This document shows positions 12,926-25,368 of a stretch of DNA of 38,106 nt, piece after piece (positions within the stretch are counted from its first letter, which is position 1; every line of letters begins with the position of its first letter). The stretch lies in the NCBI GenBank assembly GCA_021791445.1, contig JAJYWO010000014.1:1-38106 (forward strand), read 5' to 3'. The position numbers were made by a program, and so were the translations under genes. Source of the stretch: a bacterium. Lineage in GTDB: Bacteria; Patescibacteriota; Minisyncoccia; UBA6257; UBA9933. Under the pieces are notes generated by a model. It was not told the origin of the DNA. It did not search any database and saw only the letters and a list, made by a program, of their open reading frames with translations.

Positions 12926-13017
12926 AACAAATACAAAACTATTTCTGAAACCTTAACGGAAGCGCAGCCCGCCCTGGGCGGGCGTGAGCGGGTTGAAAAA
13001 ATAGTTTTGTATTTGTT
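12926..13017. repeat. 92-nt nested palindrome: 19-bp AT-rich outer inverted repeat enclosing a GC-rich 7-bp hairpin
   Basis: AACAAATACAAAACTATTT (12926-12944) is the reverse complement of 12999-13017. The inner hairpin is GCCCGCC-CTG-GGCGGGC at 12967-12983. The element sits between the last gene of the T4SS-like train and ndk. It may be a terminator or a MITE-like element. Confidence 0.6.
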
Positions 13018-14227
13018 AAAGCGCCAACCTGTACACTTTATCATCGTACCTGTTTATAAACAATAATTGGCTGTCAAATGGCGTAAAGCGCGTCGCGTCC
13101 AAAGCCGGTTCCGCTTCGCTGTAAATTCCTTTGAAAGTGTTTTGATTGATGTCAATCTCGTAAATCGCATCCGTGGAATAAGCCGCTCTTTTCAAATATT
13201 CATCCGGCAGTTTCGGCTCCTGAAAACTGGAATACGACTGCGGAATGGCGCAATAAATTTTATCAATGCTAATGGAACACTTATTCGGCAAAGAGGAAAA
13301 ACCCATATTGGCGCGGCTTGTTCCGCTTTTATCAATCAAACTCAATCTGGGATTGGCGCCCTTGGCGTCGGCCTCAAATTTTAAGCCAAATTCGCCGTTT
13401 TCTTTGACCCAATTCAGCATCAAGCCGTTGCCGCTGGCAAATGAACTGATGGTTTTATTTTTAACATCAACGCTAAAAAATTCGCTTCCGTATAAATAAG
13501 ACGGCCTTTGAACCAAAAGAATTTTATCGTTGTCAAACCAGCTCAAGTCAAAATCCCTTTGTGTCAAGGAAATGATTTTCGCGATTTGATTTTTCTTGGC
13601 AGCCAAATCTTTGGTCATTAGATTGCTCGCCAATCTCGCTCCGTTTTCAAGATAAGCGATTTTTCTTCCGTCCGGAGAAAAAGTGGCGGCCGAAACCTTT
13701 TCCAGCGGCTGCCACATTTTTGAAACCAGACTGAAAAGCTCGATTTGCGGCGAAGTCAGACTGCCGTATTTTACCAAAACCATCAGGCCGTCGTTATTGG
13801 CTTCAATCTTCTGCAAATTTTCAAAAATCCGATCACTCACCATTTCGTCTTCGCCGTCTTTCGCCATAAAAATTTGTCCGCTTTTGGTAAAATAAAAAAC
13901 TTGTTTTTCCAAACTAACGAGAGACGAAGTTGCCGCCGGCTGGGTGGAAGTGGCGGTTTTCGCCACAACCGAAATTGTTTTGGATGTCTGGTCCTGAATA
14001 AAAACCAGCGGTCCGCCGGTCGCCCAATAATCAAAAACCGGCTGATCGCTGATGATTTTTATTTTTCCGCCCGCCAATTCCTGCGGCGCGGTTCCTAATT
14101 CTCCTTCTTGATCCACGCCGGCTCCGGGCGTCAAAATCTCCTTGGATTTTTTATAAGCAAAATAAACGCCGACCCCAATGGCGATAATTCCCACAACCGC
14201 GCCGATTATGATAAAAGTTTTTTTCAT
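13016..14227 (-). CDS. Membrane-anchored extracytoplasmic protein, probably beta-propeller (TolB/PD40-like repeat)
   Basis: N-terminal TM segment (IIIGAVVGIIAIGVGVYFA) and beta-rich sequence containing FSPDGRKIAYLENG, which resembles a PD40 repeat. Function unknown. Confidence 0.45.
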   Translation of the reverse strand: MKKTFIIIGAVVGIIAIGVGVYFAYKKSKEILTPGAGVDQEGELGTAPQELAGGKIKIISDQPVFDYWATGGPLVFIQDQTSKTISVVAKTATSTQPAATSSLVSLEKQVFYFTKSGQIFMAKDGEDEMVSDRIFENLQKIEANNDGLMVLVKYGSLTSPQIELFSLVSKMWQPLEKVSAATFSPDGRKIAYLENGARLASNLMTKDLAAKKNQIAKIISLTQRDFDLSWFDNDKILLVQRPSYLYGSEFFSVDVKNKTISSFASGNGLMLNWVKENGEFGLKFEADAKGANPRLSLIDKSGTSRANMGFSSLPNKCSISIDKIYCAIPQSYSSFQEPKLPDEYLKRAAYSTDAIYEIDINQNTFKGIYSEAEPALDATRFTPFDSQLLFINRYDDKVYRLAL

Positions 14228-14233
14228 TTTTTA

Positions 14234-22712: not shown

Positions 22713-22717
22713 TATTT

Positions 22718-24490
22718 CTACGGATTTGTTCCTCCTCCCGCTGACGGCGCCCGGCATTCCGTTAACTTCTGCCGCAGGCCGTTGTTAACCAATTGATTGG
22801 TATTCGGGTCAAGGATATTCTCGCCTTCCAATTGTTTTAACAAATCCGCTTCTTGCTGATTCGCGGCGGCGCGCGCCGAGCCGTCAACAATTTGCTGTTG
22901 CAAAGCAATGGTGTTATAAGTGTTCAGGAAATTATTGGCCGCGAAATTCGCCGCCGCCTTTTCAGCATCAGTCTGTGCCGAATTAATTTGGTCAATTACA
23001 GTTTCTGCTTCATTGATTTGCGACCGCAAACCGGCGATCTCCGCCGTAAGACTGTCAACTGTTGAAGACGCATTCGCGATATCCGCGGCTGTAACCAGTT
23101 GCCCGGTCGTTGAAGTGCAGTTATTCGCCTGAAGTTGCTGTAAAGTCGTTAAAATTTCCCTCGCGTAAACTACGGAATTTCCTTTTTTGGTTAAAAGATA
23201 AGTCCATTCGTTTTTAATCGGATTGATTAGATTAATCGCATCTCGTTTATCCTGCTGGAATTGCTGATTTGCCAATCCCGCGTATTCCGGCGGATAGTAT
23301 CTTGAAGGCGCCGCGCTTTCAGAACCAAACATTTCGGACAAGCCCTCTTTCATTAAACGATTAATAAGCGCATTCACCAAAGCCGACGTCCAAGATTGGA
23401 TATTGGCGGCCCAATCTTTATCGGAAGAAATAGCATCGCCAACAGCCTTGCCCACAATATCACCCGGTGTGGCATTAACCATATCGTTAGGGTCGCAATA
23501 ACCGCCACCTGTATCTTTCACAAAACCCTGTCGCTTAACACTTCCTTCTGTTGCGCATTTTTGTAAATCTTTTTCATATTCTTCCTGAGATTTATATTCT
23601 GAAACTGACGGTAAAGACCATTTACAATTATCAGCAACTTCTGTAAGTTGTTCTGGATCAATATTAGCCAGAGGATCTTTTGTTGTTCCTTTTTTACACT
23701 GTTTCACCCCTAAAAATCCCCTGCTCGCTATTGCTTCCTGACCGGCGGATTGCATGGCCTTCGCCTGCTTCCTGAGTATTTCGTCTTGTGTTAATATCGC
23801 CGCGCCGAAAAAATTATTCTGCAGTTCCCAGCTCGCCAAATAGCCTTCCCAGCCGCCGACCGAAAAATCAATATAAAAATTATTAATATTTTTAACAACT
23901 TTATCCAAAGTACAAGAAACTCTTTGACTGAATTTCGGCACCGGCATAAACGCCAGTTTTAATTGCAAGCCGAATGGGTCGCAAAGGCCGGCCAGGCCAA
24001 GATCCCGCGTCACGGAATCAAACGCGATATCGCCCACATCTTTCAAAAACCCGTTCCAATTAGTGATGAATTTCGGCTTGCCGCCGCCCTGAATCCATTT
24101 AACGGTCTGGTCAACGATATAATCCATAATGCGCTTGGCAATGACATCGCGAAGAGACCTGCCAATCACTTCCGAAGCTTTCCAAGCTTTATCTGCCGCG
24201 AATTTTACGGCATCCAACGCTAATGATATCGCCTGACAAATCGGATTAGCTACTGTACCTACTGCCGTACCAAAAATATTGGGAATGGCCGCGCAAACTG
24301 ACCCTCCGCCAGCAGCCGCCCCCTTGCCTCCGCCAGCAGCCGCCCCCTTGCTTTCTGTACTTCCCGCAGGAAGAGACCCCCCCGCCCCGGCGCCTTCTTC
24401 TGCTCTTATTCCTTTAATTGCCCCTAAATTACTTGCGCTAACTATTATTAAAATAAGAAATAAAATTATTATTTTTTTAGTCAAGTTCAT
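22718..24490 (-). CDS. Secreted Cys-containing protein with Gly/Ala-rich N-terminus and coiled-coil-like C-terminus; unknown function
   Basis: Signal peptide (IIILFLILIIVSASNLGA), a G/A low-complexity region, a central domain with multiple Cys residues, and a Q/A/N-rich helical C-terminal third. Confidence 0.55.
   Translation of the reverse strand: MNLTKKIIILFLILIIVSASNLGAIKGIRAEEGAGAGGSLPAGSTESKGAAAGGGKGAAAGGGSVCAAIPNIFGTAVGTVANPICQAISLALDAVKFAADKAWKASEVIGRSLRDVIAKRIMDYIVDQTVKWIQGGGKPKFITNWNGFLKDVGDIAFDSVTRDLGLAGLCDPFGLQLKLAFMPVPKFSQRVSCTLDKVVKNINNFYIDFSVGGWEGYLASWELQNNFFGAAILTQDEILRKQAKAMQSAGQEAIASRGFLGVKQCKKGTTKDPLANIDPEQLTEVADNCKWSLPSVSEYKSQEEYEKDLQKCATEGSVKRQGFVKDTGGGYCDPNDMVNATPGDIVGKAVGDAISSDKDWAANIQSWTSALVNALINRLMKEGLSEMFGSESAAPSRYYPPEYAGLANQQFQQDKRDAINLINPIKNEWTYLLTKKGNSVVYAREILTTLQQLQANNCTSTTGQLVTAADIANASSTVDSLTAEIAGLRSQINEAETVIDQINSAQTDAEKAAANFAANNFLNTYNTIALQQQIVDGSARAAANQQEADLLKQLEGENILDPNTNQLVNNGLRQKLTECRAPSAGGGTNP
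24303..24350. repeat. Perfect 24-nt tandem duplication (CCTCCGCCAGCAGCCGCCCCCTTG x2) encoding KGAAAGGG x2
   Basis: Read directly. Each unit contains the CTCCGCCAGC decamer that is also found in the palindromic elements. Confidence 0.9.
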
Positions 24491-25368
24491 TTTGAATTAA
24501 AAACTTTTAGCGTTGTTTCTTGAAAATACGCTTCTTGAATCGCCAATTCTTCACTAAGAAGGTCGGGGATTAGCTGGATAGATAAAGATGCTTTAATCGG
24601 ATCTTTGCTGTAATCCGCCATTCCCTGATAAATCATTTTTGATTTTTTCAAAAAAACAATATAACGCTTATGAAGGTCTAAATAAATGGACGGCGTTTTC
24701 ATATTGATAAAATCATTAATATATTTTGCATAAGTATTTACTATTGAATTAATCCCCGAAACATTCAGATTGTTGGAAAAATCTCCAATGGCTTTTTCGC
24801 GGTTTGCGACGTCATATTTCGCTTTTTCCAAAATAATCTGGCCAGCCTTCGCTAAATATTCTTTTCTCGCCTCTTTTGAATTATCCCGCGAAATATTCAA
24901 TTCGCTGTCGCTTACGGTCGGATTGAAAAGCGCCGCCGGGTTTTGAATACCCGCGATGGCTTTTTCAATAAATTCTTTGCTCGCCGGGTCGTTCGGGTCA
25001 ATGCTGAACGGGTCTTGGCCGCTTTGGTCCAAATTTTTCATCTGCGTAAAAGAAGATTTCGCCACGAATTCCGTCAAATTGATATTTTCAAAATCAATAT
25101 TCTCCGGCAGAGAAATTTTTTCCTCTTCGCTCGCGAACAGCGACTTCAATTCACCGGTCAAATTCCCGATACCGCTGTCCTTGATGGTTTTGCTCAGCCA
25201 TTTAATCGGATTCTGGGAAGCCGAACTCGTGGAATTTTCTTCCGTGAGCCCGTTTTTCGTTGAGTCGTATTTCGGCGCGGAATTTTTTAAAATCATATAA
25301 GACGCGATAATCCCCGCGCTTATAACAAAAACAATGGCTGCTATTTTGGTACGCTCCATATTAAACAA
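24487..25368 (-). CDS. Membrane-anchored extracytoplasmic protein, unknown function
   Basis: N-terminal TM segment (IAAIVFVISAGIIASYMIL). It overlaps the next gene by 4 nt. Confidence 0.5.
   Translation of the reverse strand: MFNMERTKIAAIVFVISAGIIASYMILKNSAPKYDSTKNGLTEENSTSSASQNPIKWLSKTIKDSGIGNLTGELKSLFASEEEKISLPENIDFENINLTEFVAKSSFTQMKNLDQSGQDPFSIDPNDPASKEFIEKAIAGIQNPAALFNPTVSDSELNISRDNSKEARKEYLAKAGQIILEKAKYDVANREKAIGDFSNNLNVSGINSIVNTYAKYINDFINMKTPSIYLDLHKRYIVFLKKSKMIYQGMADYSKDPIKASLSIQLIPDLLSEELAIQEAYFQETTLKVFNSK

Follow-up and report, generated by a model that had tools for sequence, protein, structure and literature searches.

A probable chromosomal, relaxase-free type IV secretion system operon in a Wolfebacteria-like member of the Paceibacteria

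What is a series of type IV secretion system (T4SS)-like genes doing in the midst of housekeeping genes, and does it belong to a conjugative element or to a resident machine of the chromosome? The question is raised by contig JAJYWO010000014.1 of assembly GCA_021791445.1, whose 38,106 nt were analysed as a whole and are called the window below, and in particular by a train of eleven genes on its minus strand. In all likelihood, the region is a chromosomal T4SS operon of a Wolfebacteria-like member of the Paceibacteria (Patescibacteria, or candidate phyla radiation, CPR), and within the monoderm MPF-FATA class it falls into the Patescibacteria lineage. A large part of bacterial diversity belongs to the Patescibacteria, which live attached to other microbes. 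The main open reading frames (ORFs) of the window were scanned with Pfam and NCBIfam profiles, and homologue, profile and fold comparisons drew on PDB sequences and structures, AlphaFold2 (AF2) models, Foldseek and a library of 1.84 billion proteins. The reading of the locus as a chromosomal, relaxase-free T4SS is supported by these comparisons and has already been published for Patescibacteria (PMC10633639, PMC12102498, PMC12857230).

The train is real and occupies positions 13016-25368: eleven gene products, all encoded on the minus strand, follow one another from 25368 to 13016 in an unbroken series of reading frames, with neighbouring genes overlapping by up to 40 nt or standing up to 68 nt apart. 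A tightly spaced, one-strand train, flanked upstream by rsmA and the gene for a giant LTD protein and downstream by ndk, is what the first-pass annotation had described from the letters of the DNA, and this layout is borne out. The rsmA gene overlaps the stop codon of the gene for the 1461-aa LTD/fn3 surface protein (26221-30606) by 1 nt, and at the other end a 93-nt gap separates the train from ndk, which is followed by rplJ, rplL and tRNA-Val. GC content is even along the whole window, with no shift at the cluster. In reading order, the components are:

24487-25368, minus strand: A_293, N-terminally anchored protein, first gene after rsmA, with one transmembrane (TM) segment (residues 9-27)
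22718-24490, minus strand: B_590, secreted or anchored Cys-rich protein; N-terminal half conserved, linker rich in Gly/Ala, helical bundle at the C-terminus
20628-22757, minus strand: C_709, extended VirB6/TrbL-like polytopic membrane protein with seven hydrophobic segments and a C-terminal hydrophilic helical domain
19203-20624, minus strand: D_473, acidic repeat-rich protein (100 D/E against 63 K/R) with no TM segment
18672-19196, minus strand: PrgI/VirB3-like membrane protein with two TM segments (PF12666, E 3.5e-11, 43.9 bits against a cut-off of 27)
17967-18620, minus strand: TrsD-like protein, homologue of the VirB4 N-terminal domain (NCBIfam TrsD/TraD, E 1.4e-8)
16236-17980, minus strand: virB4 ATPase gene, divided by a 1-nt deletion near 17575 into ORFs of 154 and 442 aa
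15889-16167, minus strand: G_92, small polytopic membrane protein with hydrophobic segments at residues 10-43
15175-15876, minus strand: H_233, secreted beta-rich protein with an N-terminal signal-like segment
14234-15172, minus strand: I_312, signal peptide, VirB2-like pilin (two TM helices) and predicted C-terminal LAS-type zinc peptidase (PF18895, E 3.3e-7)
13016-14227, minus strand: J_403, membrane-anchored TolB-like beta-propeller, last gene of the module, with a TM segment at residues 5-23

The T4SS character of the train resides in its cytoplasmic-membrane core, which stands in the canonical Gram-positive order of extended VirB6, PrgI/VirB3, TrsD-like protein and VirB4. The PrgI/VirB3-like protein had been named as such before any profile was run, and PF12666 agrees with a score above the Pfam cut-off. 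The TrsD-like ORF aligns to positions 2-109 of the CD1110 VirB4 model and has a precomputed PF26593 TraC-like match; its stop codon overlaps the start of virB4 by 14 nt (ATG...TAA). In the 80 Paceibacteria loci described below, the TrsD-like position is a complete ORF in 73, as a separate gene of about 205-265 aa among those listed, and only two loci have TrsD fused to VirB4 (L025, 790 aa, 9332-11704; L027, 769 aa, 9431-11740). Because TrsD and VirB4 form a single reading frame in these two loci, TrsD is the detached N-terminal domain of VirB4. The rest of the CD1110 model is covered by the two pieces of virB4, the 154-aa ORF (17516-17980) aligning to positions 182-315 and the 442-aa ORF (16236-17564) to positions 320-732 (E 5.6e-90); the latter also has the Walker motifs GAGKS and VIDEAWW and a P-loop_TraG match (E 1.8e-24). 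An earlier description of VirB4 in three ORFs was thus right as to the family, but not as to the gene count: there are really two genes, a trsD-like one and one frameshifted virB4 of 581 aa.

The lesion itself can be read by comparison with two sibling contigs from other assemblies, Logan contig L002 and NCBI GCA_023474725.1 (L006), which are about 99.98% identical to the window over the 9-10 kb compared. Where the window has GGCATTATAT, both siblings have GGCATTTATAT, so that the window carries TT instead of TTT, and their VirB4 is intact at 581 aa and identical to the product of the repaired window gene. The intact sibling protein scores 371 bits on NF045971 conju_CD1110 (CTn2-type, MPF-FATA), for which the NCBIfam equivalog cut-off is 325, and VirB4 relatives among the matches listed are nearly all of about 570-590 aa. 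Two other accounts of the split gene were discarded. An alternative genetic code or a programmed frameshift does not fit ORFs that differ by frame and lack in-frame stops, the extra T of the siblings restoring the frame; slippage at a poly-A homopolymer at both VirB4 junctions does not fit either, the first junction being the natural TrsD/VirB4 gene boundary and the second a TTT run. The most likely source of the frameshift is an error in assembly or a minor variant among strains.

Could the system instead be decaying in this strain, with a real frameshift in virB4 and the cluster on its way to a set of pseudogenes? The 1-nt deletion that splits virB4 into ORFs of 154 and 442 aa speaks for decay, yet the gene is intact in two nearly identical contigs from other assemblies, the remaining genes of the train are intact and one single-nucleotide polymorphism apart from those of the siblings, and a single-base difference within a short stretch of T is what assembly or consensus errors typically look like; moreover, T4SS genes are essential in the sole system tested (PMC10633639). 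Decay is, on this evidence, improbable.

Whose VirB4 is it? The 120 best VirB4 relatives are 73-100% identical, and every named one lies within the Patescibacteria (Candidatus Wolfebacteria, Paceibacterota or 'Patescibacteria group'), which confirms the CPR origin suspected at the outset. Judged by sequence resemblance, the window VirB4 appears to belong with the Patescibacteria VirB4 clade.

The remaining component of the core, C_709, is the least direct of the core assignments, and it is accepted as a putative extended VirB6 on the strength of its homologues and of a structural model. An identical protein on the sibling contigs carries a precomputed PF19590 TrbL_3 match, as do most of the 120 homologues listed, a few having PF04610 TrbL instead, and four of 30 positional orthologues match Pfam TrbL (best E 1.1e-6). 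When the family profile was compared with the PDB, the only membrane-protein match of note was TrwI/VirB6 (E 0.28); the AF2 model (pLDDT 75.7) found TrwI/VirB6 of R388 in all of its top six PDB matches, the best of them with E 0.039, a probability of 1.00 and a target TM-score of 0.41. The seven hydrophobic segments, the TrbL matches of the orthologues and the resemblance to TrwI together uphold the first impression of a VirB6/TrbL-like polytopic protein.

Is this arrangement a peculiarity of one contig? A VirB4 alignment scan, with one genome taken per species, gave 80 Paceibacteria loci from Wolfebacteria, Harrisonbacteria, Jorgensenbacteria, Kaiserbacteria, Zambryskibacteria, Taylorbacteria, Giovannonibacteria, Azambacteria and further Paceibacteria, and homologues of the genes were sought in flanks of 10 kb by tblastn or, for the fast-evolving A, D and G, by iterative hidden Markov models (HMMs). 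Homologues of every train gene are found at consistent offsets on the virB4 strand, and many of the loci share a conserved order of 12 genes: rsmA, A, B, VirB6, D, PrgI, TrsD, VirB4, G, H, pilin and propeller. By tblastn, VirB4 is found in all 80 loci, TrsD adjoining virB4 in 77, PrgI upstream of TrsD in 73, VirB6 in 52, rsmA upstream on the same strand in 39, B directly upstream of VirB6 in 36, the pilin in 34, H in 28 and the propeller in 24; the HMMs recovered G in 65 loci, D in 56 and A in 40. All of these counts are lower bounds, because contig ends cut many loci. Since the offsets are consistent in the 80 loci, the proteins without a known family are conserved members of one module, and a comparison of synteny over CPR genomes, which had been proposed as a way of finding out which of them are conserved neighbours, thus picks out all five (A, B, D, G and H, in 28-65 of the 80 loci). 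Within the class, the T4SS module and the adjoining rsmA are passed on vertically. Linkage of a TPR-like protein, ndk and rplJ/rplL to the cluster was considered and dropped, no homologue having been found in the 80 loci, where flanks upstream of rsmA are often too short; the LTD proteins likewise have no homologue at any of the 80 T4SS loci, again with 10-kb flanks that often end too early upstream of rsmA.

This brings up the question of mobility, for which four further features of the window are needed:

25385-26221, minus strand: rsmA/ksgA, 16S rRNA dimethyltransferase (PF00398, E 1e-47)
3439-5085, plus strand: soluble VirD4- or type IV coupling protein (T4CP)-like ATPase with no TM segment (TrwB_AAD_bind, E 2.7e-16; TraG-D_C; T4SS-DNA_transf)
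5424-6767, minus strand: second soluble VirD4-like ATPase (TrwB_AAD_bind, E 2.3e-5)
31346-32050: Y1 (IS200-like, HUH) transposase, REP-associated (RAYT-like), flanked by REP-like hairpins

On the CD1115 VirD4-like model, both ATPases remain far below the family cut-off (E 2.4e-13 for 3439-5085; E 1.8e-15 over residues 51-366 for 5424-6767). The second closes a minus-strand trio, in which it follows two TM-anchored proteins of no known family (7412-8773, 453 aa; 6764-7285, 173 aa), and the trio could be a coupling-protein-like ATPase with a separately encoded membrane part. As for the transposase, the perfect palindrome GAAGGCCTCC(G/C)GGAGGCCTTC occurs in three copies within 31326-32086, one at each end of the Y1 gene and one inside it.

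It could be argued that the cluster is part of an integrative and conjugative element (ICE), or a recent remnant of one, whose relaxase, integrase and ends lie beyond the window or at its margin and whose coupling proteins are the VirD4-like ATPases. Such an element would account for a VirB4 of a conjugative family (CD1110 of CTn2), for two VirD4-like ATPases within 13 kb and for a Y1 (HUH) transposase 6 kb upstream. The Y1 protein, however, resembles REP-associated transposases rather than relaxases, and the ATPases, which lie 9.5-13 kb downstream of virB4, are separated from the cluster by ndk, rplJ/rplL, tRNA-Val, ahpC and fur; in none of the 80 loci do they have a counterpart less than 10 kb from virB4. 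Patescibacteria genomes have about two VirD4-like genes each, which are seldom near virB4 and are non-essential in Southlakia, and relaxases occur in only 103 of 3,035 genomes (PMC12102498). No relaxase, integrase or replication protein was found when the main ORFs of the 38-kb window were scanned with Pfam and NCBIfam, no long direct repeats of the att type bracket the cluster, and there is no shift in GC; and the cluster with rsmA is colinear in dozens of distinct Paceibacteria species, unlike any ICE. Synteny, taken with the lack of a relaxase, an integrase and att-like repeats, therefore speaks strongly against an ICE, which is extremely unlikely.

The same results bear on what had been said earlier about mobility. 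The reported want of a relaxase, an integrase, a replication gene and att-like flanks agrees with the profile scans and the repeat search, and the proposal of a chromosomal, domesticated machine rather than a conjugative element is sustained by colinearity in many of the 80 species, flat GC and the lack of mobile-element genes. Not mentioned in that description are the two VirD4-like ATPases and the Y1/RAYT-like transposase elsewhere in the window. The T4SS interpretation had also been staked on the PrgI, VirB6 and pilin candidates, any of which might have failed T4SS profiles; PrgI and the pilin both pass their cut-offs, and VirB6 is reached via orthologues and structure.

How would such a core be extended across the envelope? 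I_312, which had been called a pilin-hydrolase fusion, has a T4SS_pilin domain at residues 56-124 that scores above the Pfam cut-off on PF18895, and the same domain is found in 24 of 25 positional orthologues, TrbC/VirB2 being found in two. The C-terminal domain is Cys-rich and contains an H-x6-D motif (SLHYKGKAMDMD) as well as H-x-H (HIH) at its end; among 13 aligned positional orthologues, the Asp never varies and the His residues are for the most part retained. Single orthologues match Peptidase_M15_3 (8.5e-16), M15_4 or M23 (2e-33) in this region, and the family profile of the C-terminal region matches the Hedgehog N-domain in the PDB on the zinc-site motif (E 3.5e-4). The C-terminus is thus predicted to be an LAS-type (Hedgehog/M15-like) zinc peptidase, and the hydrolase half of the fusion is accordingly seen in an M15/Hedgehog-like zinc motif. 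The peptidase would be a functional analogue, not a homologue, of the SLT/CHAP VirB1 hydrolases, and it is placed outside the membrane because of the pilin-like topology of its two-helix anchor. In the orthologue at 12170-12982 of L027, the Peptidase_M23-type motif HLHFE stands in place of the M15/Hedgehog-like domain, so that one enzyme module of the LAS superfamily has apparently taken the place of another in that locus.

Two neighbours of the pilin fusion point to the cell surface. The propeller-like anchored protein proposed for the last gene is TolB-like, the family profile of J_403 matching TolB structures in the PDB with E 3.4e-11, and has one TM segment. The profile of the H_233 family matched PDB entries only weakly, the best being a cell-surface protein (7biz, E 0.003) and Hoc (E 0.033), and H_233 is possibly Ig-like.

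And what of A, B, D and G? A_293 is called as 290 aa in other assemblies, three residues shorter at the N-terminus, and has no Pfam or NCBIfam match. Its family always lies 6.3-10.2 kb upstream of virB4 in the 40 loci recovered by iterative HMM. A VirB8-like identity was considered for it and set aside, since its family profile found nothing in the PDB and no VirB8-like chain. B_590 has ten Cys, of which C193, C458 and C579 are invariant across 61 sequences. Its 64 word-index homologues include none with a Pfam domain, the named ones being hypothetical, yet 5081 representative clusters of the 1.84-billion-protein library match the family at E<=1e-3. The AF2 model has a mean pLDDT of 67.9, with a confident, helical region at residues 400-580, and found nothing below E 0.1 in a Foldseek search of the PDB; homology to VirB5, VirB8 or an adhesin was rejected, as sequence, profile and fold searches of the PDB gave only generic helical proteins. 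A perfect 24-nt tandem duplication at 24303-24350 encodes KGAAAGGG twice in the Gly/Ala-rich linker of B_590.

D_473, presumably cytoplasmic, lies always between VirB6 and PrgI in the 56 loci in which the iterative HMM recovered it, and its N-terminal ~100 residues are conserved. The label of acidic repeat protein suits it well: 100 of the 473 residues are D or E, and 9-nt periodic repeats at 19671-19827 encode N/E/I/T-rich stretches. A domain assignment was attempted with 23 family members, which gave no Pfam match. The sole base substitution between the window and the sibling contigs (position 19795, C against A) falls inside these repeats. G_92, finally, begins in all of its 65 loci 1.1-1.5 kb beyond the point where the VirB4 C-terminal match starts, which places it directly after virB4; P76 is invariant and D21 nearly invariant in the family.

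The features just described bear a close likeness to what has been reported for Patescibacteria in general. VirB4 was found in 2,417 of 3,035 Patescibacteria genomes (Quinonero-Coronel et al. 2025, Microb Genom, PMC12102498), and nearly all of the proteins form one Patescibacteria clade, of 2,425 VirB4 proteins, nested in MPF-FATA; the surroundings of virB4 include TrsD, VirB3, VirB6 and VirB2-like pilins, KsgA is frequent, relaxases are rare, TrsD is the most abundant T4SS component beside virB4, and VirB8 is rare outside class ABY1 (PMC12102498). In Southlakia epibionticum, the T4SS cluster (SEML1_0006-0019) is essential by transposon sequencing (Wang et al. 2023, Cell, PMC10633639) and resembles Gram-positive conjugative systems, with pilins and without recognisable relaxase or coupling proteins (PMC10633639). 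A 2025 review holds the same view of Patescibacteria T4SSs (PMC12857230). The present system shares with this clade its chromosomal location, an MPF-FATA VirB4, the proximity of TrsD, PrgI/VirB3, VirB6 and a VirB2-like pilin, the KsgA/RsmA neighbour, the lack of a relaxase or coupling protein in the cluster and a peptidase or lysozyme gene downstream of virB4. It differs in its frameshifted virB4, in this assembly, and in an accessory set (A, B, D, G, H and the propeller) that constitutes the Paceibacteria version; and whereas Saccharimonadia have 2-11 free pilin genes in an array, a single pilin domain is here fused to an LAS peptidase.

With the MPF-FATA systems of Gram-positive bacteria (CTn2 CD1110; pCF10 PrgH-PrgI-PrgJ-PrgK; pIP501), the cluster has in common the order VirB6, VirB3, VirB4 and then a membrane-anchored cell-wall hydrolase, the lack of a VirB7/VirB9/VirB10 outer-membrane core, and a VirB4 that, when intact, passes the CD1110 cut-off. 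Unlike those systems, it lacks a relaxase and a recognisable VirB8-like protein, and its operon contains no T4CP; the N-terminal domain of VirB4 is a separate gene, the hydrolase is an LAS zinc peptidase on a pilin-like anchor rather than an SLT/CHAP enzyme, and the setting is one of housekeeping genes instead of a plasmid or ICE. The VirB-type systems of R388 and Agrobacterium (MPF-T) are matched in the VirB6 fold (TrwI being the best PDB match), a VirB2/TrbC-type pilin, VirB3 and VirB4, but the cluster is without VirB5, VirB7-VirB11 and VirD4, and the envelope is monoderm.

Several points weigh against the view of the locus as a chromosomal T4SS that does not transfer DNA. The virB4 of the window is frameshifted, so this copy could be inactive. 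The negative result for a relaxase covers the 38-kb window, so that one may exist elsewhere in the genome, and the two VirD4-like ATPases nearby leave room for transfer of DNA or nucleoprotein. In a direct hmmscan, the window C_709 gave no significant Pfam (TrbL) match, and its model resembles TrwI to a modest degree (E 0.039, target TM-score 0.41). No VirB8-like (NTF2-fold) bitopic protein was found, the only bitopic candidate upstream being the A family, which has no PDB or Pfam match. Lastly, the roles given to A, B, D, G and H have topology and synteny as their sole basis.

How, then, might the machine work? TrsD would provide the N-terminal domain of VirB4 in trans; VirB4 itself would be tethered by PrgI, dock on the VirB6 channel and power the assembly, on the VirB6 platform, of an envelope-spanning conduit or short pilus from the pilin domain of I_312. 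The fused peptidase may open the peptidoglycan locally, in place of a VirB1/PrgK-type hydrolase, and the Cys-rich B, the Ig-like H and the TolB-like propeller could form the cell-wall or surface part that contacts the host cell. As there is neither a relaxase nor a coupling protein encoded in the operon, DNA conjugation is unlikely, and the system probably does not conjugate DNA. It is more likely, by analogy with what has been proposed for the essential Saccharibacteria system, that it moves proteins or other macromolecules between the epibiont and its host.

Does the traffic perhaps run inwards, with the machine importing host DNA, RNA or nucleotides in a Ced-like or competence-like manner? 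There are reasons to consider it: the organism belongs to a class without nucleotide synthesis, and a cultivated relative is reported to take up host RNA and to have tubular structures at the host interface that are maybe T4SS pili (10.64898/2026.06.21.733656, 2026 preprint). In addition, part of VirB4 weakly matches CedB, the archaeal DNA importer (E 3.4e-11), and of the upstream LTD proteins, one has a weak match to the exonuclease ExeM and one a marginal domain of the phospholipase C/P1-nuclease type. The CedB match, however, spans only the Walker B region of about 70 residues and reaches 42 bits against a cut-off of 700, and no CedA-like proteins were recognised, so that the locus does not resemble archaeal Ced DNA import (CedB with CedA, CedA1 and CedA2) in the features that define it; the LTD genes, for their part, are conserved neighbours in none of the 80 loci. 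Loss of comEC in Southlakia ended competence but not viability (PMC12857230, citing Wang 2023), which speaks only against DNA uptake by competence as the essential role. An inward machine is, all told, unlikely, though not far-fetched. Doubtful to a somewhat greater degree is the bolder proposal that the Paceibacteria T4SS is a distinct subtype, characterised by the pilin-LAS fusion, in which the propeller, Ig-like and Cys-rich proteins replace VirB8, VirB5 and adhesin parts and the whole would make up a host-contact structure for the uptake of host macromolecules such as RNA or nucleotides.

What does the locus add if a chromosomal T4SS that carries macromolecules other than conjugated DNA is the better account? 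The cluster is real but ordinary, being carried by almost all Patescibacteria, and the additions are modest: a conserved Paceibacteria module, a pilin-peptidase fusion, a TolB-like component and a Cys-rich family with 5081 cluster matches. No description of the gene-by-gene Paceibacteria module, of the pilin-LAS fusion, of the TolB-like member or of the size of the B family was found in the extracts of PMC10633639, PMC12102498 and PMC12857230. In the sole genetically tractable Patescibacteria species, the T4SS is essential for the attached lifestyle. The locus therefore serves as an annotated reference for the Paceibacteria form rather than as a source of a new concept, and its conserved families of no known kind are targets for complex prediction, cryo-tomography and, as culturing of Paceibacteria begins, genetics.

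Some features at the edges of the train and beyond may be recorded here. The gap between the propeller gene and ndk contains the following:

12926-13017, no strand: inverted repeat of 27 nt, with arms that are 89% complementary and 38 nt apart

This repeat may mark the end of the operon; the terminator scan missed it, and the promoter and terminator scan of the window, which gave counts not clearly above those of shuffled controls, was not used as evidence. On the upstream side, the giant LTD protein (26221-30606) has fn3 domains and an internal duplication of a module of about 855 nt. Its N-terminus has a marginal match to Pfam Zn_dep_PLPC (zinc phospholipase C/P1-nuclease-type; 27.2 bits against a cut-off of 26.8), and an equation with a solved nuclease or phospholipase was given up after a PDB sequence search that came back empty. 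A second LTD surface protein (32090-32941) has a weak match to the extracellular exonuclease ExeM. Next to the minus-strand trio, positions 8775-9806 encode a 343-aa protein of unusual architecture, which combines an N-terminal sigma-70 region 4 with HARE-HTH (RNA polymerase delta-like). A small Cys-rich protein encoded at 34434-34808 has two treble-clef zinc-finger matches and a weak HNH-like match, and its gene is overlapped by an alternative ORF at 34424-34705.

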